This document shows, in pieces, positions 1 to 53,796 of a DNA stretch of 53,796 bases (position 1 is its first letter; each line of letters begins with the position of its first letter). This DNA is from a virus. Lineage: Duplodnaviria; Caudoviricetes. The position numbers and the translations under genes are program-made. The notes beneath the pieces were generated by a model. That model made no database searches and was not told the origin of the DNA. It was given only the letters and a program-made list of their open reading frames with translations. The stretch lies in IMG/VR virus record IMGVR_UViG_3300044820_000029, positions 1 to 53,796 of that record; one strand, written 5' to 3'.

Positions 1-804
1 GTTCGTCCTCGTTTGTCGTACCGATGAAAATATTGCGCCGCGGCCGTTCCGTGACCGCTCGAGCATAAGCCGTGCGGCCCGCGTCGACCTGTCGCGATAG
101 CATCGCCTTCATGTGCGCGGTGTTCGCCGAGCCGCGCATGCCCATTTCCGACACTTCCACGATCGTCTTGCCGGCGAGGCTCAGCACCAGCTCTTTCGTG
201 GCGTCGCCGAACATGATGGAATCGGAAAACCAATCGCTGTCGATCGCGAGCAGGCTGGCGAGGGTCGACTTGCCTGAACCCTGGAAACCGTACAGCACGA
301 CCATGGTGTCATGCTTGCATCCGGGGTGGCGGATCCTGCGCACCATTCCACCAATGATATTCCGCCCGACCGCCTGGTAATACGGCTCGCACGGCAACCC
401 GCAAACACGGGTCAGCCACGTCATCAGGCGGGGCGTGCGGTCCCAAGCCCGTTCAAGGGTGGTGAGCCGATCAAGCGCTGGATCGATCGCATTTTCGTGC
501 GCGATGCTAATCAGCGATTCCCAAAAGAAGTCTTTGCCCGGCCGGAACCGCGTTTTCGTCCGGTTCGCGCGGGTCCGCAGCTTCGCCACGATCGCATCGT
601 CCAGATATGTCCAGTCGCGCCACGTCAAGCCCGGATCGCTGCCACCCTTGACTTCCATCCGATCGAGCCACGCATTCCAGCGCAGTTCGATATCCAGCAC
701 GCCGAGCAGCACCGCCACATTGTCCGAATTGTCAAACTCGGGCAGACCCTTGTTATCATAGATCCAGTCGTCTTGCTTGACGAAATGCCGTTCGACGTTG
801 TCCG
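1..804. repeat. Terminal direct repeat, copy 1 (matches 52993-53796); circular-assembly overlap with a diverged middle
   Basis: Bases 1-127 are identical to 52993-53119 and bases 720-804 are identical to the last 85 bases. The part between is colinear with many substitutions. Confidence 0.95.
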
Positions 805-2074
805 AAATTTGCTTGGCGCGCAGTTTGATTTCGCGCCACGGGAACAGGTGCCCGAGCGTTTCGATCTTGCGGCCGACGGCGGCGAGGGTGTCGGGATAGA
901 CCAGATCAAGGACTGCCATCGCACCGATGATGCGCTTGGCGCGCCACGGCTTCTGTTCGGCGAGCGCGAACGTTTTGGCGATCGCGTCACCCAATACCTT
1001 ATAGAGACCATGCGATTCGAGCGTGGCGGGCAGGGTGGGGAAGTCCGTCAGGTTAGGCCGGGTCGGAAACGTGGCGGTTGAGTTGAGGAAGTCGTCGATG
1101 ATCGGCAAGCCTTGCCTGGTCAATTCCTCTTGCCCGGCGAGCATGGGCATTGACGCCGCTCCAGAAAGAGTAGCGCCGGCCGCTGCGGCGATGTTGGCGA
1201 CCGTGCCGAACATGGATTCCGTCGATCGCCGGACCTGACCTTTCCAGCCCATCATGTGCGCGCGAGCAAGGAAGGTCTGCAGCGTGACGCTGTCGGCGGT
1301 CGGCTCGGTGGCGAAGGATTCCCACTTGGTGGCGATGACGTCGGGGGTCACATCGGGGCGGTGGGTCAGGCTCCAGATGTCCAGCCCGGCGTCGCCGAAT
1401 TCTAGGCGCGCAGCCATACCCGCGCCCATCCAGCTTTCGTAATCGTCGAATGCGTCGCGCTCGGCAAGCCATTGGAACAAGGCTGCGACGTCGTCACGAT
1501 CGCGGGTGCCGATATTGGTGGATGTGGTGGCACGTTGCGCCGGTGCGACCCGCTCCAGCAGCCCGGCCGGCGCCGGATAGGGTGCCGCGTCGTTCATGAG
1601 CAGGTACGGCTTGCCGTCATAGACACTACCAGCCGCGACGACGTATCCGTTCGCCGTGCGGGTGTTGATGTGCTTCCTGATCGCGTCGCGCTGGCGAAGC
1701 GTAGCGGGGTCGACACCTTCCGGCACCGCTACAAGTACGTGCCAACCACCCGACGGGCTTTGGATTTGTGGCTGCAGCACCGGCACGCCCCAATCGGCGC
1801 ACAGATCGCACCACATTTTCCAGGCTTCGTCTCGGGACGTCTTGGTGTCGATGTCGCATATAATCAGATTTGATGGCCCGGCTACCAGTCCGAAATTACA
1901 ACGGTGCTCGGCGTACCATGCAGCCCATTGTGCCGGGTCCTTGCTGTGGTCATGCGCGAAGCTGGAAACGATGCCGGTCGGTGCCTTGCTGCCTGCAGGA
2001 ATCGGAAAGAGTGCGGCGCCGATGCGCGCGTAATAGGCGAGGGCGGACGACACGACAGCGTCGGAATCAATCAT
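1..2074 (-). CDS. Primase-polymerase / PriCT / VirE(VapE)-type helicase, 5' part; continues through the circular junction to 52475 (~863 aa in total)
   Basis: ATG at 2074 overlaps the MTase stop (ATGA). Translation gives MIDSDAVVSSALAYYARIGAALFPIPAGSKAP...CNFGLVAGPSNLIICDID...SPSGGWH (Prim-Pol), then DYESWMGAGMAA (PriCT-2-like), then GFQGSGKS (Walker A). Same frame as 52475..53710. Confidence 0.9.
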   Translation of the reverse strand, partial: MIDSDAVVSSALAYYARIGAALFPIPAGSKAPTGIVSSFAHDHSKDPAQWAAWYAEHRCNFGLVAGPSNLIICDIDTKTSRDEAWKMWCDLCADWGVPVLQPQIQSPSGGWHVLVAVPEGVDPATLRQRDAIRKHINTRTANGYVVAAGSVYDGKPYLLMNDAAPYPAPAGLLERVAPAQRATTSTNIGTRDRDDVAALFQWLAERDAFDDYESWMGAGMAARLEFGDAGLDIWSLTHRPDVTPDVIATKWESFATEPTADSVTLQTFLARAHMMGWKGQVRRSTESMFGTVANIAAAAGATLSGAASMPMLAGQEELTRQGLPIIDDFLNSTATFPTRPNLTDFPTLPATLESHGLYKVLGDAIAKTFALAEQKPWRAKRIIGAMAVLDLVYPDTLAAVGRKIETLGHLFPWREIKLRAKQISDNVERHFVKQDDWIYDNKGLPEFDNSDNVAVLLGVLDIELRWNAWLDRMEVKGGSDPGLTWRDWTYLDDAIVAKLRTRANRTKTRFRPGKDFFWESLISIAHENAIDPALDRLTTLERAWDRTPRLMTWLTRVCGLPCEPYYQAVGRNIIGGMVRRIRHPGCKHDTMVVLYGFQGSGKSTLASLLAIDSDWFSDSIMFGDATKELVLSLAGKTIVEVSEMGMRGSANTAHMKAMLSRQVDAGRTAYARAVTERPRRNIFIGTTNEDE

Positions 2075-2931
2075 TGGGCACTCACACTAAGACGCATGTT
2101 GATCCGGGACTGTAGCGCTGCGAACTTGCCGGCGAGCAGGGCGTTCCGGCGTTGCCATTCGGCAAGGTCGATTACCTTGGACGCCGGCGCCTGAATGCGT
2201 CGCTGGCAAATGGCGAAATAATCAGGATCGCGTTCAATACCGATAAACCGCCGGCCGGTGTTCATCGCGGCGACGCCGGTGGTGCCGCTTCCCATGCAGT
2301 TGTCGAGTACCAGATTGCCCGGATTAGTATATGTCCGGATCAGGTACTCCATCAGCGCGACGGGTTTTTGAGTTGGGTGTTCCGCACCAGAAACGGACGT
2401 GAAGCGCTGAACCTGCGACGGGTAGTTGGTCCATTCTTGAGTGTACGCATCTTTGTGTGAGGGACGATTGCCGAATGCGCTTTCCTCTTTGTGTCGCGGC
2501 GCGTTGCGGCATACCCTAGGTGAATAGATCAACCCTTGCGGATTGTAGGGCATGCGCTTTTTTGACTGCGAAGCGTGCGCTATGACACCTTCCGAGAACA
2601 CGCAAACGTCCTCGTAGTTTTTCAACGGCATGTTTTTGGCGTGTGCGAACCCGCTTGCGTTGCTCTTTTCCCAAATCCAGCAGTATTTGAACATCGGAAG
2701 ATTCGACGCGATTAGTTGCGTGGTGAACGGTTGGCTTGCGGTCAGTACAATCGCTGCATTCGGCTTCGCTATGCGTCGATATTCTCGCCACAACGGTTCG
2801 AACGGAATGAGAGCATCCCAAGAGCAGGCGGTCGTGCTATACGGCAAATCGCATAGGATCAGGTCCACACTACCCGACTGCAGGCGCGGCATGATTTTCA
2901 GGCAATCGCCATTGAACAAAGTCGCGGTCAT
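2071..2931 (-). CDS. DNA amino-methyltransferase (N6A/N4C, beta class), copy 1
   Basis: GDCL, DLPY (motif IV), HPTQKP, VLDNCMGSGTTG (motif I). ATG at 2931. Confidence 0.93.
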   Translation of the reverse strand: MTATLFNGDCLKIMPRLQSGSVDLILCDLPYSTTACSWDALIPFEPLWREYRRIAKPNAAIVLTASQPFTTQLIASNLPMFKYCWIWEKSNASGFAHAKNMPLKNYEDVCVFSEGVIAHASQSKKRMPYNPQGLIYSPRVCRNAPRHKEESAFGNRPSHKDAYTQEWTNYPSQVQRFTSVSGAEHPTQKPVALMEYLIRTYTNPGNLVLDNCMGSGTTGVAAMNTGRRFIGIERDPDYFAICQRRIQAPASKVIDLAEWQRRNALLAGKFAALQSRINMRLSVSAQ

Positions 2932-2933
2932 GC

Positions 2934-3155
2934 TCAAAAACCCGGTGGTTTGATCGGAAAAGCGACAAAGAACGCCGCAGTGATCGCGGCCGATGTGGTC
3001 GGCATAACAGGGCCGTCGACCCAACGCGGACCGCCCTTGCCGGGTAGTTCGACAGCGGCACGCCACGTCCCGGCATGCTCAGTGACCGCAAGCCCGATAT
3101 AACCGGGGCGGTTCAGTGCGATGGCGAGGGGGTGGTTATCCGGCTGGGATGTCAT
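2934..3155 (-). CDS. Hypothetical protein
   Basis: Compact ORF MTSQPDNHPL... directly upstream of the MTase and downstream of a palindromic promoter site. Confidence 0.6.
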   Translation of the reverse strand: MTSQPDNHPLAIALNRPGYIGLAVTEHAGTWRAAVELPGKGGPRWVDGPVMPTTSAAITAAFFVAFPIKPPGF

Positions 3156-3293
3156 CGGACCGCCGAAACTAAAGGCGATCTGGTAAAGAGTCAATTGCAA
3201 AGTTTACTGTCAACCGCAATGACTAAGTATAGATAAGCCAATAACGACAGGCGCAAACTGTAGCGTGGCCTAACGACCGCGCGCAATATTGTT

Positions 3294-3701
3294 TCAACGA
3301 CCCGACGCAGTCGGGCGCCACTTATCGCCTTCTTTTTCCAGCTCGCGGATCAGCCGCTTGTGCAGACCGTCGGTCGGGTCGATTCCCTTTTCGACCAGTT
3401 TGCGGATTGTCTCGGCGAGCGCGCGGGCACGCTTGATGCTCATTTCCGGATAGTCGCCGATCTTGAGATAGGGCCGGGTGCCGTCCGCCTGCCGATACTG
3501 GACGTGGAAAGAGATCAGCCCGGTGTTGCGCACGATTGCGCGATGGTTCTGCACCATTTCGTCAGTCACGGTCACGCGGTCCAGCGGGATCCGTTTTGCT
3601 TTGAGATCATCCGCCAGCTTTTCCAGAGTCGCTTCTGAAAACCGCGGCGGGCCGGGCTTCGCAACAATGGTCGGTTTACGCTTCATGGTCTCATACCTCA
3701 A
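3294..3701 (-). CDS. Stand-alone integrase arm-type DNA-binding domain protein (DUF4102 / Arm-DNA-bind_3-like)
   Basis: IVRNTGLISFHVQYRQADGTRPYLKIGDYPEMSIKRARALAETIRKLVEKGIDP matches the N-terminal domain of P4-family integrases. No catalytic domain follows. Confidence 0.8.
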   Translation of the reverse strand: MRYETMKRKPTIVAKPGPPRFSEATLEKLADDLKAKRIPLDRVTVTDEMVQNHRAIVRNTGLISFHVQYRQADGTRPYLKIGDYPEMSIKRARALAETIRKLVEKGIDPTDGLHKRLIRELEKEGDKWRPTASGR

Positions 3702-3896
3702 AAGTCTAAAGTTGACAGTAAACGACTCGGTGCCACGGAATTAACTTTTAGTCAAGGGTCAATCCTCGTAAAAGTACGAGGCGAAGAAAAATTAAAACGG
3801 CGGTTGACAATCAACCGGAAACGTATAATAAAGACCGTGTTAACCATCCTGCTACCGCTAACGCACCGGCCGGTGCAACAAATTACGGAGACATGC
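3702..3896. promoter_or_regulatory. Divergent AT-rich control region with two palindromes, TTGACA/TATAAT-like hexamers and CtrA-like boxes
   Basis: Palindromes at 3711 and 3803; TTAA-N7-TCAA at 3741-3755; TAAA-N7-TTAACCAT at 3829-3847; RBS GGAG at 3887. Confidence 0.7.
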
Positions 3897-4571
3897 ATGA
3901 CCTTCAAAATCAAAATCGCCCGCGCGCCTTTCGAGGTCGAATTCGAGACGGGCAGTATTTCCGAAGCGATCGGCGCGCTCGAAGCCGAAAATACCAATTT
4001 GGCACGCCTGTTCGCGATCGACCTGTCGGGTGGGTCGGAAGCGGACGAACCGGAACAGGCCGCGCCGACTGTGGCGACCGAAACGGCACCGGCGGCGGCT
4101 GCGGCGGCAGGCAAGGGCCGCGGCCGTCCGCGCAAGAACGTCGAAGCGACTGCGCCCGCGCCGATCCCGACACCCGACGCGCCGCTGGCACCGGTGTTGC
4201 CGACAACCACGCAATCGATCGGCCCGACCCCTGCGACCGTCCTGCCGCCGAATCAGTTGGCGCCGACCGACGGCCTCGCCATCCCGCCGTTCCTGGATCG
4301 CGCCAGCCCGGCCGCGGTGGTCAACCAGCCGCCAGTGCCTGTCGCACCGCCCCCGCCGCCGGCTCCCCCGATCGGCGTGCTCGCGCAGAAGGTGATCGCC
4401 CATATCGAAAAGGCGGCGCCGGACAAGCCGAGTCAGGACGGATGGGTCGCGTGGGTCGCGTCGACCGGTCTGACCATCCCCGGCGCGACGTTCGCCGAGA
4501 CGATCGACTGCCTGCGTTTCATCGACGACACCAAGCTGGCGCCGGTCGCGGCGGCTTTGAGCATCGCGTAA
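3897..4571 (+). CDS. Pro/Ala-rich protein with AT-hook-like motif
   Basis: GGAG RBS, ATG at 3897, GKGRGRPRK motif, long low-complexity linker. First gene of the replication operon. Confidence 0.8.
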   Translation: MTFKIKIARAPFEVEFETGSISEAIGALEAENTNLARLFAIDLSGGSEADEPEQAAPTVATETAPAAAAAAGKGRGRPRKNVEATAPAPIPTPDAPLAPVLPTTTQSIGPTPATVLPPNQLAPTDGLAIPPFLDRASPAAVVNQPPVPVAPPPPPAPPIGVLAQKVIAHIEKAAPDKPSQDGWVAWVASTGLTIPGATFAETIDCLRFIDDTKLAPVAAALSIA

Positions 4572-4613: not shown

Positions 4614-4643
4614 TTGGTTGATAGTGAACCGGGAAGGTGACAA

Positions 4644-6316: not shown

Positions 6317-6374
6317 TCTCGTTGGTTTACAGTCAACTCCACTTTCCCAACGTGATCCCGAAAGGTAACGAGAC

Positions 6375-10396: not shown

Positions 10397-10466
10397 GTTT
10401 CGTGGTTGACAGTAAACCAGAAGTGTTATAGTAAACGGACAGTCAACCACTGGCACGGGGCACTTC

Positions 10467-11141: not shown

Positions 11142-11146
11142 CCGTG

Positions 11147-11570
11147 ATGGTACACAATAAACCCTGCATCTGCCACGAACACCGGCCGGAATGCTATTGC
11201 GCACCGGCGGCGCCATTCAACCGTCGCGAACTGCGCATCCTGATCGGATCCGGCATCGTCGCGTTGTGTCTGTTGCTTGGCGTAGCGCTCGCCAAGGCCG
11301 AACCCATGCGCGCCAGCTACTACGGCTCCGAATCGGGAACACGCACCGCGTCGGGCGCACGGTTCGTGCCGTCGGCGATGACCGCGGCGGCACCGGACGC
11401 TGCCGTTCGGGACGAAATTGCGCGTGTGCCTGCGGGGATGCGTGGTTGTGACCATTACGGACCGCGGCCCGTTCATCAAGGGTCGGCACCTGGATTTGTC
11501 CAGCGGGGCGGCTCGGGTGATCGGGCTGACGTCGGCGGGCGTGGCTGTGATCAGCGTGGAGAGGATGTAG
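11147..11570 (+). pseudogene. rlpA: RlpA-like double-psi beta-barrel (lytic transglycosylase-like) with N-terminal TM/signal segment; 1-nt frameshift near 11390
   Basis: ASYYG...TASGARF...MTAA, then one extra G, then HRTLPFGTKLRV...DRGPFIKGRHLDLSSGAARVIG to TAG at 11570. Confidence 0.85.
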
Positions 11571-11572
11571 CC

Positions 11573-16488: not shown

Positions 16489-16532
16489 AACCTAACTGGT
16501 TTATTGTAAACTTTCGGTTAGTGCCTGCGGCA

Positions 16533-17136: not shown

Positions 17137-20100
17137 TTAATGCACGCTCAGTGTTACGCCATAAATCGGGATGTTCTTGTTATTTAGCGTCTTGACGCGC
17201 GCGGCACATGACGTGCCGCCAGTGGTCGCCTGGTCGACTGTCTCGGCAACTTTGTTCCCGCCCTGACCATAGGACGTGACGGCGGACAGCGATGCTGCGG
17301 TCCAAGTCGTGCCGCCGTTGCATGTCACTTCGACGGTCAAATCGGTGTTCAGCGTCGGCACTGCTGTGTTGTCGAATTCGATCAGCACGCGGCCATTGCT
17401 GACCGTAGCGTCGGCGGTCTGCGCAGCCGTCACTAGGGTCATGTTGTTGTATGTGGTAGAGCCAGCGGCGATTTTGAATTCGAACTCCTCATAGGAGGCG
17501 TCGGTCCCGGTCGTCGATCCAACCTTCGTCATGCGCAGGTAGGTTGCTCCAGATGCCGGCCACCCGGTAACAGATTGCGTCTGCGTCGCAGAACTCCATG
17601 TAAAGGTGTTCCCATCTGTCCACGTCGTTCCGTCGTTTGACCACTGCCATTTCCATGAGCCATTACTAAGTGACCTATCAGCATAAATTTTCACTTCATC
17701 AATGTACTTTGCCGACCCAAAGTAGAACTGAAAATAGTTCCCATCGACGAAGGAAGGGGCTCCGTTCGTTACGTAGGCGTTTGTAGTGTTGGCGGCGGCG
17801 CTTCCGTCGACAAGAGACGTCGCTGTCGATCCCCCATAACCAAATATTGCAGGAACTGACGCGGTCACAGTTATCGATCCAGTCCGCGCCCCCGTTCCAC
17901 CGGCATTTGCATATGACGTCGATGGAACCGTTTGAGATGGCGAAACCTTGCCGTTCGAAGCCGCGAATGACGTATCGACGTTCGATGATGACCCTGTATT
18001 GATACCGCGCAGCGCGTCGGACGAAGCCTTGAACCCCGTGGCGAATAGGTTCACGCCCTTTCGGATATCGCCAAGCATTTTCGACTGATAAATTCTGTCG
18101 ATGAGCACATTCTGGCGTTCGTCGGCGGTCGCGCCGCTTCCGCCACCCCCCGTCTGAGTAATCCACGTCCCGCCCGCGCCGAGCACTTTACCAGCGGCAG
18201 CGTCGCCGGCGCCCGGCGCAGGAACAAGACCCTTCGTACCGCCGGATCCTGAGTCGCCAACCACGGTGTTCAGCAGTGCAGTTGCTTGCGTGGCGGTCAG
18301 CGCTTCAACGTTGCCGGTGCTCGCGGTCGTGCGCCCGAGGAACGTGGCGGTCGCCACGGTCGCCATCATCCCGAGCGTGACCTTGTTGGCACCGATCGTC
18401 GTAGCAAACGACCCCGTGCCTGATCCGGTGATATCTCCGGTCAGGGTGATGGTCTGGTCGCCGGTATTTGTGCCGGAATGCGTACCGCCGTTGATCGTCG
18501 GATTGCCGCCGAGCGTGATGGTCCGATCGGCGTTGCCCAGCACCCACGAAATAGTATGGTTTGCGGTGAGAACTTCCGAGCTGGCGAATTTCAGGTCGAA
18601 CGCAGCGCCGGTTGAGCGGATACCGAGACTGGTCAGGGCGTCGTGCGTGCCGCCCGTCATCGCAGCGTTGTTTGCAAACACCAGTGCGCCGGAGCCGGTT
18701 TCGTCCGAAATGACGCCGGCCAGTTCCGCCGAAGTCGTCGCGGCGAACGCGGACAGCTTATTGGCAACATACGCGACCGTTCCGCCTGCGCCGAGCGCAA
18801 CGCTACTGCCGTCCGTTCCGGTGAGCGTGAGTGTGCTGTTTACTGTCAACGTCTTGCCGGAGCCGAACGTCAGCGTGCCCGTTCCGGAAGTCAAGGTGTT
18901 GCCGTTATAGGTCTTATTCGTCAGAGCCTGCGTATCGGTCGTGCCGACCACTGTGCCAGTCGGCAGCGCCTTACCACTGTCCTGAATCAGCTTTCCGGAC
19001 GTGCCGTTAAATGTGGCGATATTCGCCGACGTGGCGGACGCCGGGCCGACCACAGCGCCGTCGATATTGACCTGGATAACGTCCCAATTCGCGCCGACAG
19101 CAGCTTGTGTACCGGCCGACGTACTGTCAACCGTGCAAATCAAAATATCGCCGGCCTCAACAACCGTTCCGCTCGCACCACCAATCTTGCCGGCGACAGA
19201 CACGCGATAGGTCGCGCCCGCATCGGCCGCGGGATAATTCGGGTTCGCCGAGCAATCAATCGTGCCTTTGAACAGCATGACGTCCAGCGCGGCAACCCGA
19301 GCCGCCACATAGCTCACGATCGCCTTTTGCGACGCAACTCGCGTATCGCTGTTCGCCGCCAGCGTGCCGTCGGTGTCCACGACGTTCGTGGCGAACATCG
19401 CCGTCGTCAGGTTCGTAATCGTGTTGTTCGCGGCGTCAACCGACTTGTTGGTCAACGTCTCGGCGCCGGCGCGCGTTGCGAGCGTGCCCGTCGTCGGGAA
19501 CGTGACGGTCGTAGTGCCAGACATCGTGAAGGTCGAACCATACGCGCCGACCGTGGTCAACGCACCAGCAAGCGTCACGTCGCCAGCGAGCGAAACAGCA
19601 CGGTTTGCGTCGCCAACCGTCAACAAAATCATGCGGTCCGCAGTCAACGCTTCGGCGGTCGCCAATTTCAGATCCTTGGTTGCGCCAGTCGAACGAATGC
19701 CGAGACTGGTCACGGCGTCGTGCGTGCCGCCGGTAATTGCCGGAGCGCTCAGCGCAGCGTTCGTTGCACGCGCGACCGCTCCGGACCCTGTATAACCTTC
19801 GGACAGATTGGCAACGCTCGGCTGTGCGTGTAGCAGATTGCCCGACGTGTCCATTCCGGTGACGAAGTGGTTCGATACCGGAACGAGCGAATATACGCCG
19901 CCAAGCGAAATCGTCGTCGGCGCAGGCACGGACGAAATGATCTTGAAGCGCTTACCGTCCGCGGAGATAATGCACGCCAGACCGTCGTCGGGAGTCGTGA
20001 CATCTGCAACATCCTGCAGATAGGTCACGCCGTTCGTTTTCAGCACGACGACAAGTTGACCAGCAAGGTTCGTGGTCTGGATTTCCGCGACGTTGGCAAG

Positions 20101-21569: not shown

Positions 21570-21594
21570 TTACGCGGAACTCCAAGGTTTATTG

Positions 21595-23739
21595 TCAACC
21601 ATTCGTGTTAATATTGGCTAAAACGAATTCCTGTTCGTCGATTTCCGGGTTCCAGTATTCGACAGATGGGTCGTACCGCGTGAGCGCGAGCGCCAGCGTC
21701 GTGCAGTCGTCGGCAAATCCGACCGCCGTGACCATGTACGCGCCATTCGCCTTTGCGAACAATACGCTGTCGAAATTGACGACTTGACCGACCAACTCCT
21801 CCTGCGCGTTGACTGCAGCGATTGCCATCAGACGAACGTCGACCGTGCAGGTGATCGTGCCGTTCAGTCGGGTGGACAGCAAAAACGCCTTTTGAAGCCG
21901 CTGCGCGCGTCGGTGATCTGTGGTATAATTGAGCGCGAGCGTTGCCTGCAGGGTTTGGCCGTCGGTCGCGGCGAGGTCGGTGCGGTTCAGGATCGGGCCG
22001 TCGACCACCTGATATTCCTGGTCCGGCACAACGAACCGAACCTGCAGCCGGTTGACCCGATCGACCTTCTGCTTTGCTGCCTGGTAGGTAATTCCCCCGG
22101 CGACGATCCGATCGTGAATTGTCGCGATGGCTGTTTTCGGCCGCGCCGATTCGATCCACACGCTACCACCGCTTTCCAGCAACATTGCGCGGTTTGCAGT
22201 CAACAAGTCCTGCATGACGTTGTAGGGCTGCTGGTTGAGTATGATCACGCCGTCGATTGTGTTACGGCGGATCATTGTGCCGTCTTTGCATCCGATCAGA
22301 TCATCATCGTAATTGGCCGAGTCGATTGTTTTGTCCCAGCGGATTTTCGACATTGGAATTTTTCCGCCGAACGAGCGAGTCAAATACCAAGTCTGCACCA
22401 GCGTCGCGTTGTTGGTAAATTTCCAGGTACTTTCGTCTGACATGTTTTGTGTCGGGTCGCGCGGGTCGTAGCAGACGGCACCGGCGACCACAGCATAGGT
22501 GCTCGGGCGAGCGACTTGACCCCATAGCGCGGTAAACGCGGCTTGCGTGGTCGCGCTATTGTCGGTGCCGCCGTAGCTGAATTCGTAGGTAATCGTGGCG
22601 TTTCCGCGCTGCCGGAATTCAGCGCCGACGTTCGGGTAACGTGCAAGAATCAATGGATCCGCCGCTTGGTCGGTCGCACCATATCGAACCGAAACGCGAA
22701 GATTCGACGGGTAATCCGGTTGATCGATTGTAGAAATCGGTAATATAATTCCGGGTGAGATAGCGGAAAAGCTCAATTTGTTCGTACCAACGTATATTGC
22801 TTGCACGCTGGAAATCTTGCCGTAGTTGATCAAAACCCCCATGGTCAGGTACGGAGCCGTCACCTGTTCGAAGAACAGCGCGCCGCCGACATAGGCCGTT
22901 CCGACAATTACGCGCTTGTAAGGAATCGCCTGCCGTTCGGTGACTTGCGCGCCTTTGAGCGGTGAAATATCGCTAATGCTACCGTAGTCACCGGTTGACC
23001 CGCCGCTGGTCAGACTGTCCCCTTTGGATGGCTGCAACAGTGATGACACCATTGAAACGCCGACCGACAATGCGACGGAGGCTGCGGCGAGTGCGACGTA
23101 ACCAACAACCGCCGCAGCCGTTGTGCTTGCTGCAACACCGAAAAATCCGAACACAGCCAAACCAATCGACACCGGTTCGTGACAAGCCCGATCCAGCGAC
23201 ACGCGCGGACCGGCCTGCGCAAGCAGCGCATCCGGCAACACTGACCACGCACACGCAACGTTCTCGGCGCGCAGCGCGGTGAACCCGCCTTCGTTGCGGC
23301 CGACGAACCACCCGCGCGCCCGGCAAATCACCGTGGCAAGGACCAGCACGTCCTTGGTGCCGCGACGTCGGACCGATAGTCCGGTTTCCTCATCGATGTC
23401 CGTAACCCAGCACGGAATGGTGGTGGGCGTCCATGCCAATCCAGCATCGCCCGGTTGGGCAAGGTCGGGGCGAATGCGCCGCCACCGGTGCCGGCGAGCG
23501 ATGCCCTTCAACTGCCCGAGCAGGCCGGCGCGGCCGGTGACACGCATCGACCCGCGTCGCGTCTTGTAGCGTCCGCGGACCTTTGCGGCTGGATCATAGC
23601 CGAGCACATCGCGATGAATATTCGCCACCCACAGCGCGCAATCGTCCACGCCCCACTGCATGGCAGTTTCCGCCGACGCATCCTGCGCGGCTGCGATGGC
23701 GCTGGAAAATTGTTCACGTTTGCTCACACCGGAGTCCAC
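21595..23739 (-). CDS. Tail tip / central tail protein fused to an N-terminal NlpC/P60-like (DUF6950) domain
   Basis: WGVDDCALWVA and AQPGDAG at the N-terminus, then a hydrophobic segment, VIVGTAYVGG, YDPRDP, WKFTNNA. Confidence 0.8.
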   Translation of the reverse strand: MDSGVSKREQFSSAIAAAQDASAETAMQWGVDDCALWVANIHRDVLGYDPAAKVRGRYKTRRGSMRVTGRAGLLGQLKGIARRHRWRRIRPDLAQPGDAGLAWTPTTIPCWVTDIDEETGLSVRRRGTKDVLVLATVICRARGWFVGRNEGGFTALRAENVACAWSVLPDALLAQAGPRVSLDRACHEPVSIGLAVFGFFGVAASTTAAAVVGYVALAAASVALSVGVSMVSSLLQPSKGDSLTSGGSTGDYGSISDISPLKGAQVTERQAIPYKRVIVGTAYVGGALFFEQVTAPYLTMGVLINYGKISSVQAIYVGTNKLSFSAISPGIILPISTIDQPDYPSNLRVSVRYGATDQAADPLILARYPNVGAEFRQRGNATITYEFSYGGTDNSATTQAAFTALWGQVARPSTYAVVAGAVCYDPRDPTQNMSDESTWKFTNNATLVQTWYLTRSFGGKIPMSKIRWDKTIDSANYDDDLIGCKDGTMIRRNTIDGVIILNQQPYNVMQDLLTANRAMLLESGGSVWIESARPKTAIATIHDRIVAGGITYQAAKQKVDRVNRLQVRFVVPDQEYQVVDGPILNRTDLAATDGQTLQATLALNYTTDHRRAQRLQKAFLLSTRLNGTITCTVDVRLMAIAAVNAQEELVGQVVNFDSVLFAKANGAYMVTAVGFADDCTTLALALTRYDPSVEYWNPEIDEQEFVLANINTNG

Positions 23740-28953: not shown

Positions 28954-29045
28954 GTGACGAAGGTAGGGGAAGCGCGGTTAAAAATTCGTGGTTGACAGTG
29001 AACCCGGCCGGTGTAGGGTGTCAGCGAACAGGGCAGGAGCGGACC

Positions 29046-30412: not shown

Positions 30413-30447
30413 CCCGCCAAACTATCAACAGACCAGTTTACTGTCAA

Positions 30448-30804
30448 CTACTTCCGAACCTGACAATCGAACAACACGACCACGCCGGCCGGCTGCAGCG
30501 GCTTCACGTCCAGAACGTCCCGATCGCCAACCTTGTCCTGCGGCAACAGCGACGCCAGTGCGCCGGCGTTGGTCGCGACCAGCCACCGTTCGGCATTGGC
30601 GAGCACGCCACCGGCCTGAATTTGCTTCATGGTGTATTCGACCCGGACGGCGAACGTGTTGGTCGTGGCGGTCGTCCCATCGCCCGGATCCCACGCCGGC
30701 CCGGTGCCGGGCGCGGTCCGCGTGATGACGACGGACTGGCCGAATTCTTGAATGAGTTCGTCCGCGTCGGCTCGGGATTCGATGTAATCGAAGGGGTCAG
30801 CCAT
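30448..30804 (-). CDS. Head closure / head-tail joining protein
   Basis: ADELIQEFGQ, PLQPAGVVVLFDCQVR. Confidence 0.8.
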   Translation of the reverse strand: MADPFDYIESRADADELIQEFGQSVVITRTAPGTGPAWDPGDGTTATTNTFAVRVEYTMKQIQAGGVLANAERWLVATNAGALASLLPQDKVGDRDVLDVKPLQPAGVVVLFDCQVRK

Positions 30805-32306: not shown

Positions 32307-32328
32307 CTTAAAACGTAGCGGTTGATTG

Positions 32329-33456
32329 TCAACCGAGAACGATAGCGACGAACTCGCCGTTGATCGTCTTGAAGCCCCAGGCCAGATGCAGTTCCCAGGT
32401 GAGCTGACCGTACTGGGCGATCTGCAGCATGAGGTAGGTCATGCCGAAATCGTCCGAAATCAACTGCTGCTGGATCGTCGGGTTCGCCGGGATCAGCGGC
32501 GGACGGATGACGCCGACGCAGGCGGACCGTTCGAACGCAAGGTTGGCGGTGTAGGTGCCGCCAACAGTGATTGCGGCGTTGTCGGCCGACGCGATACGCA
32601 GACCGGGGGTGCCGATGCCGAGGGTGGTCGACGCCAGCGCGGTGTTGACGACGTACTTGTTGGTGTCCGACGCGAAGGTGATGACGTCGCCGGCAAGCAC
32701 GGTGCCCGAACCGGTGTCCACGGTGATCGTGGTATCGCCGATCGCCGCCGATGCGTTGTTCACCAGGTAGCCCGAACCGGTGCCGGCGGTGTGCTTCGCG
32801 ATGCCGGCCGATTCGTGGATGGAGAAACCGAACTGCGGCAAGAACTTACCGGTCCGGCGTTCCTGCTCACTGCCAGCGAGATAGGCTTGCTGGAAAATGG
32901 ACAGATTGCGCAGGTTCAGGCCGGCAGAGCTGTCGCCGACGAACTGCAGATCGGCCAGCGGCGCACCGTTGTCCTGCAGGATCTTGCGGGCGTTGCTCAG
33001 AACCGACAGGTCCGAAGCAAACGGGGTGGTGCCGGCGGTGCCGTAGGCACGGGACGCGCCGATCTTGAGCGCCACCGCGGCGTCAACTTCGGCTTCGTTG
33101 CGCAGCGTACGCATGCCCTGCGAAACGAGCTGCTTCACCCAATCCTGGTTGATGGTGGCATTCTGCAGCGAGCGAATCTGCTCGCCAGTCAGATGCCACG
33201 ACACCTTGCGGGACTTGGTGATCTGCACGTCGATCTTCGAACCGGTCGAATCGGCGCCGGCGGTGCTCGCCGCAGCGGGGGTGAAGTCGGACGCGGCGCG
33301 GACCGGCGCAACGTCGACGGAAACGGTATCACCCTTCGCCACGCCCTTGTCATCGAACGACGTGTTGATGGCGCCGACGACGCCGAACGGTTCCTGTGCG
33401 ACCACCTTCGCGGCCGAAAAAAGGGTAGGCGCGAGCGCCGTAAACGTATTGGACAT
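32329..33456 (-). CDS. Major capsid protein (P22 coat-like family)
   Basis: 375 aa after the scaffold; AYGTAGTTPF, ARKILQDNGAP, WELHLAWG. Confidence 0.88.
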   Translation of the reverse strand: MSNTFTALAPTLFSAAKVVAQEPFGVVGAINTSFDDKGVAKGDTVSVDVAPVRAASDFTPAAASTAGADSTGSKIDVQITKSRKVSWHLTGEQIRSLQNATINQDWVKQLVSQGMRTLRNEAEVDAAVALKIGASRAYGTAGTTPFASDLSVLSNARKILQDNGAPLADLQFVGDSSAGLNLRNLSIFQQAYLAGSEQERRTGKFLPQFGFSIHESAGIAKHTAGTGSGYLVNNASAAIGDTTITVDTGSGTVLAGDVITFASDTNKYVVNTALASTTLGIGTPGLRIASADNAAITVGGTYTANLAFERSACVGVIRPPLIPANPTIQQQLISDDFGMTYLMLQIAQYGQLTWELHLAWGFKTINGEFVAIVLG

Positions 33457-36884: not shown

Positions 36885-36980
36885 GGCTGGAAAGTAGGGG
36901 CGTTGGGGTTAAAAAAGAGTGGTTGACAATAAACCCGCCTGATGTATTGTTGTGAGTACAGACCGTCACGGAGCGCAACA

Positions 36981-40548: not shown

Positions 40549-40571
40549 AGTCTGCTCTCGGGAGGGTTAGT

Positions 40572-40850
40572 TTACAGTAAACCGCTGACGGCGAGCCGGA
40601 CGCCGGTGCGGATCAGCGCCAGATCGCCCGAATTGATATTGCCGGCGCAGTTTTCCAGGTACTCGCCGATCAGCAGATTTTCGACGTCCTTGGGGTCGGC
40701 CGACGGGGCGGTCTCGGCGATGAACCGCTCATTGGCGAGTGCCATTTCGGTCGCGGCGAGTTGGCTTTGCAGTTCAGCGATCCGCTTTTCCAGCGTCGCC
40801 TTGAGTTCGGCGGTTAGGGTTTCGTCCTTGGTCGTCTTACGCGGTGCCAT
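40572..40850 (-). CDS. Hypothetical coiled-coil protein
   Basis: AAGGA RBS; 92-aa ORF. Confidence 0.7.
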   Translation of the reverse strand: MAPRKTTKDETLTAELKATLEKRIAELQSQLAATEMALANERFIAETAPSADPKDVENLLIGEYLENCAGNINSGDLALIRTGVRLAVSGLL

Positions 40851-41822: not shown

Positions 41823-41902
41823 TTTACGGTTCCGGGTGTTGATGTGGTCAGAATACACGTTCGCGGTTTACTGTCAACCACGCGCGGCAAATAAAAATCA
41901 GG

Positions 41903-43029: not shown

Positions 43030-43060
43030 AGTATCGAACCTACCACCGTCGGGTTTATTG

Positions 43061-44671
43061 TCAACCGTTATCTGCACCAGTTTTAGCCGGCATCGGCACC
43101 ACCACCGCCGACCCATCCCGCGAAATCTGCCACGCCGACAGCCGCCCGTTCGGCACCAGGATCGCCGAGCCGTCCGACCGGATCCATCGGGCGTCCTGTG
43201 CCCTGTCGTCGCCAAATTCCCAGCGCTGCCCGTTCGCGTCGTCCAGGACACCGCCTGACCAGCTACGCCGCACCGGTACCCATCCGCCCTGCCGTTCAGC
43301 AGCCGGTCGGAACGAGGCGATCAGCGCAGCGCCGCTTGGCGTATCGAGCAGCTTTGGACCCTTCGGCGCGTCCCCGGACGGTTCCGGCGCACGCATATCA
43401 TACGCGCAGTGCGGGCAATCAAGCGTGCCCTTGACGACTTCCCCGAGACACGCCGGGCACAGCTTGGTCATCGGCGCGTCGCACGCCCAGCACTTCCGCG
43501 CTGCGCTCGGATTGCGTTTTCCGCAGCATTCGCAAGTGGCGAGGTGGACTTTTGTGTCTTTGGGACGGATGAAATCTAGGGGTCCGAACTCCGCAGAATT
43601 GTCGGCGAAGTCGAGCAACAGAGCGTCACTCTTGCCGCGGGCGATACTGGTCTGCATGTTGCCGCCAATCGTGCGGAGCATTCGGCCTACGATCTGCACC
43701 CACAGACCTAGCGATTTCGTCCGGCGCCGGCACACCAGCAAATCGATTTCTTGGACGTCGAAACCCACCGTAAGACAGTCCAGATTCACCAATGCCCGCA
43801 ACTGCCCGGAGCGGAGCTGTTCGGTAGCGCGTTGGCGCGCAATATCGTCCGCCTTCGACCGACTCCCGAGCACCAGGCCAGTTGGAATGCCCCATTCGTT
43901 CATCCGCTGCGCCATGGCGACCGCGGCCTTGGTCGACGCTTCGAACACCAACCACGAACGACGATCGCGACCGTAATGAAGCATCTGCGCAATATGATTA
44001 TCCATTAGCGCGATCATCTGATCATCAGACGACGCGCCCGTGTATTCACCCTGCCGAACACGCAGTTTGGTGGGATCGATTCGGTCGTCAACCGGAACGG
44101 AGAACGGCGGAACCAAAAAGCCGTCGCGGATCCCGTCCAAGATCGAATAGCGGTACACGATCTTGTCGAATGGCGCGTCCTCGCCATCGGTAAGGGATCC
44201 GCCGAGCATTCGAAACGGCGTACCTGTTCCACCGATAAGCCGCGGATATCCGAGTTCGCGATGAAACTGGCGAAACATGCCGGATTCGCTGTGTTGCCAC
44301 AAATGCGCTTCGTCACCACACAGCAACCCAATCGGTCCGAACGATCTTGCGGACCGATGCACCGACTGGATCTGCGCAACGATGACAGGCATCCGCCAGT
44401 CGCGCCGATCTAGCGTTGCGGAATTGATGCCTGCTTCTACACCGACATCTGCGCAAGCGTCGAATGTCTGTTGAACTAACTCAACACGATGCGCCGCTAT
44501 TATGGTTCGCTCGCCACGCTCAACCCATGCGCGTTTCGCGTTCATGGCGTACAGATGTGACTTGCCGCCGCCGACGCAGATGTCGACTAGGGGTCGGTTG
44601 ATGCCCGCGCGAAAAGCGGTGTCGACGGCTTGCTCTGCAGCGATCTGATGAGGTCGCGGGACGAAGGTCAT
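43061..44671 (-). CDS. SF2 DEAH helicase with C-terminal zinc ribbons
   Basis: VGGGKS, DEAH, TGTPFR, GFD, QIVGRMLR and several CxxC. Confidence 0.92.
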   Translation of the reverse strand: MTFVPRPHQIAAEQAVDTAFRAGINRPLVDICVGGGKSHLYAMNAKRAWVERGERTIIAAHRVELVQQTFDACADVGVEAGINSATLDRRDWRMPVIVAQIQSVHRSARSFGPIGLLCGDEAHLWQHSESGMFRQFHRELGYPRLIGGTGTPFRMLGGSLTDGEDAPFDKIVYRYSILDGIRDGFLVPPFSVPVDDRIDPTKLRVRQGEYTGASSDDQMIALMDNHIAQMLHYGRDRRSWLVFEASTKAAVAMAQRMNEWGIPTGLVLGSRSKADDIARQRATEQLRSGQLRALVNLDCLTVGFDVQEIDLLVCRRRTKSLGLWVQIVGRMLRTIGGNMQTSIARGKSDALLLDFADNSAEFGPLDFIRPKDTKVHLATCECCGKRNPSAARKCWACDAPMTKLCPACLGEVVKGTLDCPHCAYDMRAPEPSGDAPKGPKLLDTPSGAALIASFRPAAERQGGWVPVRRSWSGGVLDDANGQRWEFGDDRAQDARWIRSDGSAILVPNGRLSAWQISRDGSAVVVPMPAKTGADNG

Positions 44672-45546: not shown

Positions 45547-45587
45547 GCTGGCACAATAAAACAGACCGGCTTATTGTCAACCGTAAA

Positions 45588-46203: not shown

Positions 46204-46263
46204 TAGGTGCAAATCGAGCAGTTGCGAGAGTTGGAGCGTTACAGACATTTGGTTAGTTTACCG

Positions 46264-46500
46264 TCACCGACCCTGCACACGCGCCAATTCGATGTGCTTC
46301 CAAAACGGCCGGAAGAACCGATTCAGCGCCTTCGGCTTGCGACCTTCCCAGCGATCGATCGGGCGCCACATCTCGCGACGCTCGCCAAAGGGCCGAAACC
46401 GATAATAGACCCGAGCTGTCCGGCCGTCGCGGCATTCGACCGCGGCGTGCCATTCGTGCTGGTCGACCCGAATATTCGGAGTGCGGTAAAGGCAAGCCAT
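46264..46500 (-). CDS. Hypothetical protein
   Basis: MACLYRTPNIRV...; basic and aromatic-rich. Confidence 0.55.
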   Translation of the reverse strand: MACLYRTPNIRVDQHEWHAAVECRDGRTARVYYRFRPFGERREMWRPIDRWEGRKPKALNRFFRPFWKHIELARVQGR

Positions 46501-46702
46501 AGTACGGCTACTGCCACGGACGCTGCAGGCCGACCGTGACCAGGCACGCCACGCCAACGAAAAGAACAATCATAAGCCCTTGAAATTCAGTCATGGTAAA
46601 CTCCTCTGTTGATTGTAAACCGCTATCTAGCACGAAGAAAATGGTCCGGCAAGCCGGACACGTCCGGAAACGCCGCGGTCAGTTGTTCAAGTCGTGTCGT
46701 CA

Positions 46703-47090: not shown

Positions 47091-47143
47091 GTCGCGTCCC
47101 CTTCGTTAGGTTCGCAGTAACCATACACGTCGTCGGTTTATTG

Positions 47144-47641
47144 TCAACCAGCAATCGTATCAAGTTCGCCACGTTCCAGGAAGTCTCGCGGCAGCGCGAT
47201 GATTTCCAGCCCCAGCGCCTTGCCGGTCGCGCGTTCAGCCCGCGCACCGGCCGAATTTTCCCAGCCGGGCAGCAACGCAACCGCGTCTGCATACGCGCAG
47301 ATCCACGCCAGATCGGCGCCGAGCGCTTCGCGCAGGCTGAAACCATGCTCACGGGCTGCGCGGTCCTCGCACCCATCGATATTGCCGGCCGAAATGTCCG
47401 TGCCGTGGTGCTCGTTGTCGCGATCGGCCGGGTTGAACACTTCGAACCCGAGTCGGCGCAGGTGTTCGGCGGCTTTGTAGAACGCCGGAAAATTGAAATG
47501 TGGAATGCCACGCATCGGGCCGGCGAGGTAGATGCGCCGCGCCCTGGACTTACCAACCAGCGCCAATTCGTCCGACGCATCGTGGTCGATCGGAAATGCG
47601 TCGATCATGTCCGTTCCGCTCGGGAATTTACGCGACGGCAT
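47144..47641 (-). CDS. DUF4406 / nucleoside 2-deoxyribosyltransferase-like protein
   Basis: IYLAGPMRG...NFPAF...VFNPA...DAVALLPGWENSAGARAE. Confidence 0.85.
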   Translation of the reverse strand: MPSRKFPSGTDMIDAFPIDHDASDELALVGKSRARRIYLAGPMRGIPHFNFPAFYKAAEHLRRLGFEVFNPADRDNEHHGTDISAGNIDGCEDRAAREHGFSLREALGADLAWICAYADAVALLPGWENSAGARAERATGKALGLEIIALPRDFLERGELDTIAG

Positions 47642-48552: not shown

Positions 48553-48582
48553 ATCGTCACCCTGCATCACAGCGGTTTATTA

Positions 48583-48855
48583 TCAACCAGTCACCAACAA
48601 ATAAACCGGCATTCCGTCAACGGTAATAACGCTCCCTTCATCAGATTCAACCAGCCCGACCGCATCATCCGCAACGTCCAACTCGCCAGCCACGGTCCGC
48701 GCGACCCAATCCCATCGACCGGCGCCAGTGATCCCGTGCGTCCAGAAAGCGCGCTGGCCGTCCAGGTGCGTGATGGTGGTTTGATTCGGGACAACAGGGA
48801 AAGCCCGCCGGTTGGTCTGGAAGTCGAGTAGTAGGGCAGTGTCTTGGGCGTTCAT
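48583..48855 (-). CDS. Hypothetical protein
   Basis: ATGA-coupled; the stop codon lies inside a palindrome. Confidence 0.65.
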   Translation of the reverse strand: MNAQDTALLLDFQTNRRAFPVVPNQTTITHLDGQRAFWTHGITGAGRWDWVARTVAGELDVADDAVGLVESDEGSVITVDGMPVYLLVTG

Positions 48856-49310: not shown

Positions 49311-49983
49311 TTGAACCCTTTCAATGTACTGTCTAACTGAACTATTGTGTCATCCTATTGGTTTATTGTCAACCACGTTGATTTTGCCAATGTTCTCGTT
49401 TCGTACAACCGTTCCGTTGTTCAAACTAATAGTTCGCCTCAATAAAAAATTCTAACTATTTGATATCATTCATTGAATCGACTTCCATTGAACTAGGTTT
49501 GAACCACTGAACTGACTGAACTGAAGATTCTAAAGAGTATTGGACTATGTAAAGGGTATTTACATTAATACATTATTAGTATTACACAGACGCATGGCTC
49601 CGAGCCACGTCAACTGAAAGTCTTTGAAGGTGCGGTTCAGTCGTACAGTCGTACAGTGCGAAAAATTTGGCAGTTTTATCTCGCGATTACAATGAGATAC
49701 AGTGACAAACTAAACTGAACCATTGACTTCGAAAACTTGAACTGTACGGGGCTGATCGTACATAGAATCGATATTTTAATTCGACACGTTGAAATGTTAT
49801 TTCGTGTCAACCTGTAATAAGCACAAAAAGCTATGCGTTTGCTGAATATCGGCAAAAGTGAAACGAAAGCCCATAAAATACAAACGGAAGTTTAGCTGAA
49901 AGTACCCAACCAATATTATTGCCAACTTGTCAGTTGCACAGGCACTCGGATAGCGTGCGGCTTTTAGTTTCGGAGACACGCCG
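49311..49983. other. Candidate replication origin (AT-rich, ACTGWAC iterons, IHF consensus)
   Basis: Largest non-coding stretch. ACTGWAC at 49336, 49506, 49515, 49714 and 49741 (+) and at 49635, 49643 and 49651 (-). WATCAANNNNTTR match at 49453-49465 (-). Confidence 0.65.
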
Positions 49984-50862: not shown

Positions 50863-50926
50863 GGTCGGCTCCGTTGTGTTCGTGTTGGTAAACAAACCAT
50901 AACACGGGCCGGTTTATTGTCAACCA

Positions 50927-52442: not shown

Positions 52443-52474
52443 AGCCCCAAACCTACCCACCGCACGGTTTATTG

Positions 52475-53796
52475 TCAACCAGCAACCGCACCAGAACGAC
52501 GAACCACGCCCGGCCGTCCCAGCGCATCCACATGCGGCATGAACCGAACCCCGATCTTCGGAATATCCGCCGGCCTCACGTCGGGACCGCGCACCCAAAC
52601 CTTCGCACGCGCACCGCCGATCATCGGGCTATCCTGTCGGAAACCCATGTTGCGCATGATTCGGCCTCGTACGCTGGTCGGCATGCCGCGGGAATTCAGT
52701 TTGTCCGTGAGGTAAATCAGATCCGCCGCGGTGACGTAAGAGACGGTGGATTGATCAGCGCCGAACCATTCGGCCAGCACGATCTCAGCGTCCGATTGCG
52801 TGCGCGCGGCTTCCTGGTGTTCGGCAGCGGTCGACCAAAGCGTGCGAGGAATGGCGAAGTCATCGCCTTTACCTTCTAAGTAAGCAGCCTCGCCGATCAA
52901 CTGATCCTTGTTCGATGCCAACCACGCCAGATCGATTTCGGATTTGATCGGGACGGGCAGGAACCGACGATTGCCTGTCGTGTCCGTCAACGGTTCGTCC
53001 TCGTTTGTCGTACCGATGAAAATATTGCGCCGCGGCCGTTCCGTGACCGCTCGAGCATAAGCCGTGCGGCCCGCGTCGACCTGTCGCGATAGCATCGCCT
53101 TCATGTGCGCGGTGTTCGCGCTGCCGCGCACGCCCATTTCCGACACTTCGACCACTGTCTTGCCGGCGAGGGACAAGACCAGCTCTTTCGTGGCGTCGCC
53201 GAACATGATGGAATCGGAAAACCAATCGCTGTCGATCGCGAGCAGGCTGGCAAGGGTCGACTTTCCCGACCCTTGGAAACCGTACAGCACCACCATGGTG
53301 TCGTGTTTGCAGCCGGGGTGCCGTATCCTGCGAACCATACCGCCTATGATATTTCGCCCCACCGCCTGGTAATACGGCTCGCAGGGCAGGCCACAGACGC
53401 GGGTCAACCACGTCATCAGGCGTGGTTGGCGGTCCCACTTAGCCTCAAGGGTAGTGAGCCGACCCAGCGCCGGATCGATCGTATTTTCATGCGCGATACT
53501 GATCAGCGATTCCCAAAAGAAATCCTTGCCCGGCCGGAACCGCGTTTTCGTCCGGTTCGCACGGGTCCGCAACTTCGCCACGATCGCGTCGTCCAGATAT
53601 GTCCAGTCCCGCCACGTCAAGCCCGGATCGCTGCCGCCCTTGACCTCCATCCGCTCGAGCCACGCATTCCAGCGCAGTTCGATATCCAGCACGCCGAGCA
53701 GCACCGCCACGTTGTCCGAATTGTCAAACTCGGGCAGACCCTTGTTATCATAGATCCAGTCGTCTTGCTTGACGAAATGCCGTTCGACGTTGTCCG
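52475..53796 (-). CDS. Primase-helicase 3' part (VirE/VapE ATPase plus C-terminal domain), second allele
   Basis: GFQGSGKS, VEVSEM, FIGTTN, TGNRRF; open to the window end. Confidence 0.92.
   Translation of the reverse strand, partial: DNVERHFVKQDDWIYDNKGLPEFDNSDNVAVLLGVLDIELRWNAWLERMEVKGGSDPGLTWRDWTYLDDAIVAKLRTRANRTKTRFRPGKDFFWESLISIAHENTIDPALGRLTTLEAKWDRQPRLMTWLTRVCGLPCEPYYQAVGRNIIGGMVRRIRHPGCKHDTMVVLYGFQGSGKSTLASLLAIDSDWFSDSIMFGDATKELVLSLAGKTVVEVSEMGVRGSANTAHMKAMLSRQVDAGRTAYARAVTERPRRNIFIGTTNEDEPLTDTTGNRRFLPVPIKSEIDLAWLASNKDQLIGEAAYLEGKGDDFAIPRTLWSTAAEHQEAARTQSDAEIVLAEWFGADQSTVSYVTAADLIYLTDKLNSRGMPTSVRGRIMRNMGFRQDSPMIGGARAKVWVRGPDVRPADIPKIGVRFMPHVDALGRPGVVRRSGAVAG
52993..53796. repeat. Terminal direct repeat, copy 2
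   Basis: Colinear with 1-804. Confidence 0.95.

Follow-up and report, generated by a model that had tools for sequence, protein, structure and literature searches.

What does the arm-binding domain of an integrase do when it is encoded by itself, in a phage genome that carries no recombinase? The question is raised by a short gene at 3294..3701, on the minus strand of the virus record IMGVR_UViG_3300044820_000029 (Duplodnaviria; Caudoviricetes), which we analyzed over its whole length of 53,796 nucleotides (hereafter, the window). Arm-binding domains are known as parts of integrases; here, the domain stands alone, is conserved, resides in a recombinase-free phage, and is followed by a tail that probably dimerizes. 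We tentatively favor the reading that this gene, hereafter the arm gene, encodes a dimeric DNA-binding protein that regulates transcription or serves as a switch in the phage's early region, and that would probably act via a promoter box that recurs throughout the genome. The free-standing arm protein would most likely be a repressor or a switch protein, where we infer both the sign of the regulation and the box as its target.

The arm protein and its same-length family

The open reading frame (ORF) comprises 135 codons from a TTG at 3701, and 130 amino acids (aa) when read from the ATG at 3686, which has GAGG ahead of it; the 130-aa form is the one deposited in a public collection (P0001). 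Pfam assigned the protein to a single family, PF13356 (Arm-DNA-bind_3), at residues 44–111 (E-value 2.1e-12; 47.5 bits against a cut-off of 27), and a six-frame search of the window with this profile matched the arm gene alone (48.1 bits). PHROGs returned only phrog_3423, whose function is unknown, and NCBIfam returned nothing above its cut-offs. An AlphaFold2 (AF2) model built on 34 relatives reached a predicted local distance difference test score (pLDDT) of 86.1 and contains four strands followed by two helices. In this predicted layout, the product of 3294..3686 (minus strand) starts with a helix at residues 18–29, continues with the four strands within 37–79 and a helix at 84–99, and ends with a family-specific C-terminal helix at 104–122. 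A Foldseek search of the model against the PDB placed the arm domains 3ju0, 3rmp_C, and 3jtz on top (E 2.3e-4 to 1.6e-3, with template modeling scores by target of 0.67–0.83), followed by a match at E 0.12. The sequence profile of the family also picked out the arm-domain chains of the HAI7 and HPI/CP4-like integrases, and the protein is ~25–27% identical to the solved integrase arm domains. A fold search of BFVD was headed by integrases and by a 90-aa “site-specific integrase” of a Klebsiella phage, and yielded no functional lead. The core-binding (SAM-like) domain that stands behind the arm domain in a tyrosine recombinase is absent: the chain stops at residue 130. Overall, the profile and structure searches agree, with PF13356 above its cut-off and the fold of the solved arm domains. 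They bear out a preliminary description of this DNA, made from its letters alone, which reported an intact 135-aa ORF with only a P4-type arm-binding domain and no core-binding or catalytic remnant.

A length-restricted search recovered 35 proteins of 87–149 aa at 47–100% identity, 34 of which carry PF13356; the row at 100% is the window’s own P0001, and the remaining 34 reach 82%. We aligned 34 of these proteins, leaving out the 87-aa P0033. They share the tail GIDPxxGLHxRLIRELxxxGxKWRP, and most chains stop straight after its final RP. Within the tail, G107, L112, E115, G120, and W123 are invariant across the 34 rows, and a further seven columns (L108, H109, R111, R114, L116, R124, and P125) show at least 90% conservation. 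By its length (~115–150 aa in this family), its GLHxRLIRELxxxGxKWRP tail, and its end after RP, the window protein belongs to this family. An exhaustive search of 1.84 billion representatives yielded 154 proteins at E ≤ 1e-3, of which 74 reached E ≤ 1e-10; 71 of these 74 are at most 193 aa long. The three longer exceptions carry tandem Arm-DNA-bind_3 modules and no recombinase domain; they are P0065 (257 aa) and P0085 (228 aa), with two modules each, and P0098 (839 aa), with five. A fold model of P0065 made without an alignment had a pLDDT of 40.8, too low to use. Integrases of ~400 aa came up in the exhaustive search only from E ~5e-6.

Relatives were also sought in other collections. The ESM Atlas holds clusters of 588, 266, 87, and 73 members with PF13356 only. 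Among isolate phages, 21 records matched, over residues 55–115 only; none covered 80% of the query, and none was a stand-alone relative. The annotated matches in this set are integrases, the best being a 381-aa protein with an integrase note. A survey of the host family of the related genome G004, scoring 10 candidates per genome, found matches in 4 of 401 genomes, all already known. Our literature searches found neither a description nor a functional study of a stand-alone arm-domain protein.

We then compared 18 coding sequences of the arm gene, a set without L030, because of its frameshift, and without L026, a duplicate of L025 at the DNA level. The proportion of nonsynonymous differences (pN) was below that of synonymous differences (pS) in all 153 pairs, with a pS of 0.61–0.75 and a ratio (omega) of 0.2–0.5 that is only rough because synonymous sites are saturated. 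That pN falls below pS in every pair, at saturated synonymous divergence (dS), fits purifying selection on the arm gene. The copy in L030 (2781–3163), frameshifted after 73 codons, was the sole disrupted one among the 19 loci that were read through. The preliminary description had considered that relatives might carry a full-length integrase at this place and that the present copy might be decaying neutrally. We found instead the same short gene at this place in the relatives, with pN below pS throughout.

A two-copy complex prediction of the arm protein scored 0.50, compared with 0.04 for the best of three controls. Of 30 proteins solved as one-chain pairs, 20 reach the mark for this score, as does 1 of 23 single-chain structures; these counts hold only roughly because our own alignment was used. 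At least 84% of the contacts agreed between model runs, and the partner pLDDT was at least 79. The predicted interface comprises residues 74–77 and 86–126, with the family-specific helix packing on helix 84–100 of the other copy. The conserved tail is thus predicted to form a swapped homodimer interface, and the two-module relatives P0065 and P0085 fit an arm module that works in pairs.

A recurrent promoter box and its possible reader

The palindromes at 3202, 3711, and 3803, previously noted as flanking the arm gene, are real, but they are not private operators: they belong to a promoter box that occurs in 25 copies across the genome. The copies at 3202–3214 and 3711–3723 are exact reverse complements, and that at 3803–3815 is 85% alike. 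Allowing one mismatch, the pattern GTTKACNNTMAAC occurs at 25 places in the window, giving 48 strand matches against 2.23 expected, and its largest count in 100 shuffles of the window was 6. The relatives G001 and G003 have 17 and 21 box sites, respectively. The consensus in the window is GGTTGACArTAAACC, and most sites begin with TTGACA when read in the direction of the downstream genes. Behind the box, a TAnnnT follows at 16–18 bp at 10 of the 25 sites in the window, 9 of 17 in G001, and 13 of 21 in G003, compared with 1–2% of random positions; the boxes are therefore −35 regions of sigma-70-like promoters. Twenty-five near-identical promoters are unusually many for a 53-kb phage.

Judged by its letters, the box exceeds a plain −35 hexamer. 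Seventeen of the 26 TTGACA hexamers in the window continue with nT[ACG]A[AG]C, 20 have a G at −1, and 19 have a G at −2. In G003, the sites stretch to 23-bp palindromes, such as TTTATGTTGActtTCAACATAAA; G002 has a box variant of its own, TTGACAGTATGC; and the box is conserved in G001, G003, and G002, with 3′ halves specific to each lineage. This conserved symmetric extension of the −35 hexamer suggests the site of a dimeric protein.

The boxes around the arm gene face outward. The copy on the minus strand at 3202..3214 (GTTGACAGTAAAC) reads leftward and lies past the stop of the arm gene, ahead of a small ORF and the methylase and primase genes. On the other side, two copies on the plus strand read rightward: GTTGACAGTAAAC at 3711..3723, 25 bp upstream of the ATG, which presents TTGACA rightward and TTTACT toward the gene, and GTTGACAATCAAC at 3803..3815, a candidate −35 of the rightward early promoter with a TATAAT 14 bp downstream. 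Between these two upstream boxes, at 3764..3781, lies a perfect 7-bp hairpin with a 4-nt loop (CCTCGTA-aaag-TACGAGG), which no T-run follows on either strand. A strict sigma-70 consensus scan of 2900–4100 returned no promoter-like site. A box on each side of the arm gene is found in G001 (42634 and 43156) and in G003 (9957 and 10627) as well.

Does the arm protein read the box? Two related loci, L015 and L016, are chromosomal islands that hold the arm gene. The second has no other gene in common with the phages, and L015 shares with them, beyond the arm gene, only a 93-bp match (L015 6588–6680) to the structural-gene ORF 34318–35418, ~3.3 kb away. We scanned both loci with a matrix trained on 42 boxes of the window and G001, using 300 column-permuted matrices as controls. 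Of the five highest-scoring non-overlapping matches in L015 (20,327 bp), the best three (GCATACAGTAAAC, GTAAACAGTAAGC, and GTTTACAGTCGGC) fall within 150 bp upstream of the arm ATG, and none of the 300 control matrices placed three matches there. This cluster of box-like sequences weakly links the protein to the box.

These observations suggest how the arm protein may work. Two subunits would pair by swapping the GLHxRLIRELxxxGxKWRP tail onto the partner’s helix 84–100, and the paired beta-sheets would then read the near-palindromic box. Because the box overlaps the −35 hexamers of ~25 promoters, and because three copies flank the arm gene, an occupied box could block RNA polymerase at these promoters and the arm gene could control its own expression. 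In the window genome, the protein would do so without a recombinase. A repurposed transcription regulator was one of two possibilities raised in the preliminary description, and it fits the same-length family, the predicted dimer tail, the outward-facing boxes on both sides, and the box-like sequences upstream of the gene in the L015 island, with DNA binding as the step that we infer. A more far-reaching version, which we consider unlikely, is that the arm beta-sheet domain has turned into a master repressor, a tail-swapped dimer that sits on the ~25 promoter boxes and silences the whole phage in the manner of stoperators. The same DNA-reading domain might also act at the arms of attachment (att) sites in related islands. 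Were the arm protein to read the genome-wide box, it would bring a new fold to phage master regulators and a class of phage immunity repressor without a helix-turn-helix, and it would offer a handle on lysis–lysogeny control in an uncultured group of Bradyrhizobium and Rhodoplanes phages.

Several points weigh against this regulatory reading. The boxes may be no more than strong promoters, or their reader may be a different phage protein or a host factor. Candidate readers include the OmpR-type regulator encoded at 10467–11141, an HTH_8 protein encoded at 13195–14421, and the product of 3897..4571, which has a sub-threshold AT-hook match (16.0 bits against a Pfam cut-off of 17.4; E 0.011). The box-like matches in L015 score 9–12 bits, compared with 22–25 bits for true phage boxes. 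In L016, the second-best match, GTTTACAGTATGC, abuts the arm start codon, yet it is the only one of the top five near the gene and was equaled by 21 of the 300 controls, which makes it marginal. The half-sites of the box are 7 bp apart, center to center, which is unusual for a dimer, and the three boxes beside the arm gene have no TAnnnT at 16–18 bp. The arm gene is also co-directional with the lytic replication genes, unlike a classical repressor gene. Finally, three loci place the arm gene at, or seemingly at, an att-like end of an element, which fits a role in recombination.

The other 22 copies of the box are spread over the window. Plus-strand copies lie at 4617..4629, 10405..10417 (ahead of the OmpR-type regulator gene), 28991..29003 (TAGGGT at 16 bp), 36922..36934 (TATTGT at 16 bp), and 40570..40582. 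Copies on the minus strand with a TAnnnT lie at 30436..30448 (TAGTTT at 17 bp), 32321..32333 (TAAGGT at 16 bp), 41866..41878 (TATTCT at 16 bp), 43053..43065 (TAGGTT at 16 bp), 45569..45581 (TATTGT at 16 bp), 47136..47148 (TATGGT at 16 bp), 50912..50924 (TATGGT at 16 bp), and 52467..52479 (TAGGTT at 17 bp). Further minus-strand copies are at 16499..16511, 18838..18850, 21587..21599, 22192..22204, 46608..46620, 48575..48587, and 49361..49373, and two copies, at 6325..6337 and, in weak form, at 46256..46268, were given no strand.

Genomic context and alternative explanations

The window is the whole record, which is classed as linear and 86% complete, so that, on this classification by itself, an integrase could have been missed. 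The ends of the contig nevertheless overlap: bases 1–804 align with bases 52993–53796 at 92.07% identity over 807 columns, and the alignment reaches both ends exactly. A minus-strand gene for a primase-helicase (Prim-Pol / PriCT-2 / VapE) at 2..2074 runs off the left end and continues in 52475–53710, where its C-terminal part is encoded on the same strand (52475..53710). The pieces at the two ends are identical at 231 of 239 residues, and together they sum to ~863 aa, compared with 840 aa and ~855 aa in relatives. Because the ends overlap and the primase-helicase spans the junction, the genome is probably a complete, closed circle of ~53 kb, assembled across two strain variants. It lacks a cultured close relative, since a search for near-identical DNA gave only an 86-bp methylase match and the identity of PolA in protein searches tops out at about 30%.

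Six-frame searches of the window with PF00589 (Phage_integrase), PF00239 (Resolvase), PF07508 (Recombinase), and PF00665 (rve) gave no match to any of the four profiles. The recombinases of three relatives, searched against the window by tblastn, gave a best E of 2.9, and a scan of the window for tRNA genes found none. Thus, the earlier statement that the window holds no tyrosine or serine recombinase stands, the tyrosine, serine, and DDE searches having all come back empty. It does not extend to the relatives, in which G001, G003, and L020 have a tyrosine integrase at another locus. In G001 and G003, these integrases (369 and 378 aa, with PF00589 only and no PF13356 by Pfam) sit between homologues of the window genes 10467–11141 and 13195–14421, at a distance of ~9–12 kb from the arm gene. 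L020 carries the beginning of a G001-type integrase in the equivalent position, and the left end of G001 has a tRNA-Pro. Relatives therefore have both the arm gene and a separate integrase, whereas the window has kept the arm gene alone; since the relatives have their integrase elsewhere, it is not a stand-in for a missing integrase.

The corresponding interval of the window (11141–13195) holds a split DPBB_1 gene, a low-GC 277-aa ORF without a family match (11579–12412), and a dGTP_diPhyd_N gene. The DPBB_1 gene (RlpA-like lytic transglycosylase) at 11306–11567 is split over two frames, whose pieces cover profile positions 5–30 and 27–82, by either a frameshift or an assembly error. The OmpR-type winged-helix regulator (Trans_reg_C) encoded at 10467–11141 is 224 aa long, has no Pfam receiver match in its N-terminal half, and is kept in G001 and G003. 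A Pfam search of ten small ORFs between 41.6 and 50.9 kb found no regulator. Elsewhere in the window, the genes at 2071–3066, 42211–43251, 50927–51892, and 44668–45546 encode a pair of N6/N4-type DNA methylase homologues, a C5 methylase, and a protein with a NUMOD3 motif that resembles a homing endonuclease. A perfect 37-bp tandem repeat at 50560–50642 (2.2 copies) is a possible iteron or origin element.

We collected 21 related loci, 3 of them viral, 4 in bacterial genomes, and 14 in metagenomes, with Bradyrhizobium and Rhodoplanes as the named hosts; the three viral records show broad synteny with the window. Downstream of the arm gene, on the same strand, the window has a small ORF, the N6/N4 DNA methylase gene (2071..3066, minus strand), and then the primase-helicase. 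Among the 12 loci whose downstream sequence extends for 1.5 kb or more, 9 likewise have a primase-helicase downstream on the same strand, the exceptions being L015, L016, and L024. Upstream, the gene at 3897..4571 (plus strand) opens a divergent, rightward early operon that continues with a DUF2800 nuclease, an Enc34-type single-stranded DNA-binding protein (SSB), PolA, and VRR-NUC; among the 11 loci whose upstream sequence extends for 2 kb or more, 7 have a divergent DUF2800 nuclease operon. The preliminary description was partly right in placing the arm gene divergent from the replication operon: this holds for the nuclease, SSB, and polymerase genes, and not for the methylase and primase-helicase genes, with which it is co-directional.

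The setting of the arm gene at some related loci would fit a role in recombination. The protein could be a recombination directionality factor or an arm-site accessory factor, which would bind the att arms of its lineage and either steer a tyrosine integrase or supply arm binding in trans, and which would have been orphaned in the window by the loss of an integrase module. Its fold is the one that reads arm sites, and Pfam finds PF13356 in none of the tyrosine integrases of G001, G003, and L020. At L015 8822–10503, the arm gene has a divergent 320-aa Xer-like tyrosine recombinase on one side and a called tRNA-Ser on the other; in L022, the arm gene comes last before a stretch that resembles a tRNA-Ser. 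Right behind the stop codon, a pair of direct repeats, (G/C)(G/C)TAGG(G/A)CA, 12 bp apart, is present in each of L015 (as GGTAGG(G/A)CA), L016, and L022; these repeats look like an att arm and keep an accessory role in recombination alive for the family. The L015 layout could be that of a natural two-chain integrase or of an excision factor. In the window, however, which has neither a recombinase nor a tRNA, the gene has stayed intact, at 82% identity to the nearest relative, and TAGGGCA repeats are absent. An adjoining integrase and att site, as befits an excisionase, are seen in L015 only. In G001 and G003, the arm gene is distant from the integrase and lies within the replication module, and in the relatives’ integrases the catalytic domain is preceded by an N-terminal stretch that belongs to the integrase itself. 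We regard this explanation as improbable.

Position also lends something to a helper of the replication origin, which would mark the origin and recruit the Prim-Pol/VapE primase-helicase. That enzyme is encoded downstream on the same strand in the window as in most loci, and Pfam finds in it only Prim-Pol, PriCT-2, VapE, and DUF5906, with no DNA-binding domain. Nevertheless, no iterons or tandem repeats were found beside the arm gene, a promoter-type box stands between it and the primase operon, and the primase lies upstream in L022 and L024 and is absent from L015 and L016, so that we give this role a small chance. The second possibility of the preliminary description, a dominant-negative decoy that keeps resident islands or rival prophages from excising by sitting on the arm sites of their P4/SXT-type integrases, would account for an arm fold without a catalytic part. 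It gained no specific support: the protein has little identity to integrase arm domains, matches to integrases come only at E ~1e-5, no cognate integrase was identified, and the conservation of both the dimer tail and the gene’s place in the replication module would be left unexplained. We therefore consider it very improbable. Domain content alone, an arm domain and nothing else, would also suit a decayed remnant of a full-length integrase gene. Yet the same-length relatives stop at the same residue and keep the short gene at the same place, core and catalytic remains are absent behind the arm domain, and pN is below pS in every pair; on the strength of family conservation, we rejected this reading as next to inconceivable. 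The dimeric regulator or switch protein remains the explanation that we tentatively prefer.

Comparison with known systems

The immunity region of phage lambda, with its CI repressor, and the “stoperators” bound by the repressor of mycobacteriophage L5 are natural points of comparison. As in these systems, the arm gene sits between outward-facing early promoters that share one box, and ~25 copies of the box are dispersed genome-wide, mostly in the direction of the genes. Unlike lambda CI and the L5 repressor, the arm protein has neither a helix-turn-helix nor a cleavage domain, and its target is a proposed one; it has the arm fold, and searches with HTH_3 and Peptidase_S24 gave no match in the window or in G001. 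The window boxes also differ from the L5 stoperators in overlapping −35 hexamers instead of lying inside transcribed intergenic stretches.

P2 Cox and 186 Apl are small proteins that act both as switch repressors and as excisionases. By analogy, a dual role of this kind would reconcile the early-switch context of the arm gene in the phages with its place at an att end beside the recombinase in L015. The folds are unrelated.

PMC8138268 describes DUF4102 (now PF13356) as the arm-binding domain of the IntSXT subgroup. The arm domains of these P4-like integrases (HAI7, 3ju0; HPI/CP4-like, 3jtz and 3rmp) share with the arm protein the Pfam family and a four-stranded sheet with a helix. The arm protein differs in having no core-binding or catalytic domain, in an N-terminal helix of its own and a C-terminal helix with a predicted role in pairing, and in belonging to a genome without a recombinase. 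In the engineered binary recombinase described in PMC9791396, the N-terminal domain of lambda Int was supplied as a separate polypeptide. An arm-binding domain as its own chain beside a catalytic chain resembles the layout of L015, with its 320-aa recombinase; that system, though, was engineered and needed extra mutations, and the window has no catalytic partner.

The closest counterpart in databases is the class named “Arm DNA-binding domain-containing protein” (105–160 aa), whose members, like the arm protein, are short and carry PF13356 only. The names in this class are automatic, and fragments may make up many of its entries. Databases hold numerous stand-alone PF13356 proteins under this automatic name, and the family described here indicates that such short proteins should not be written off as integrase fragments.

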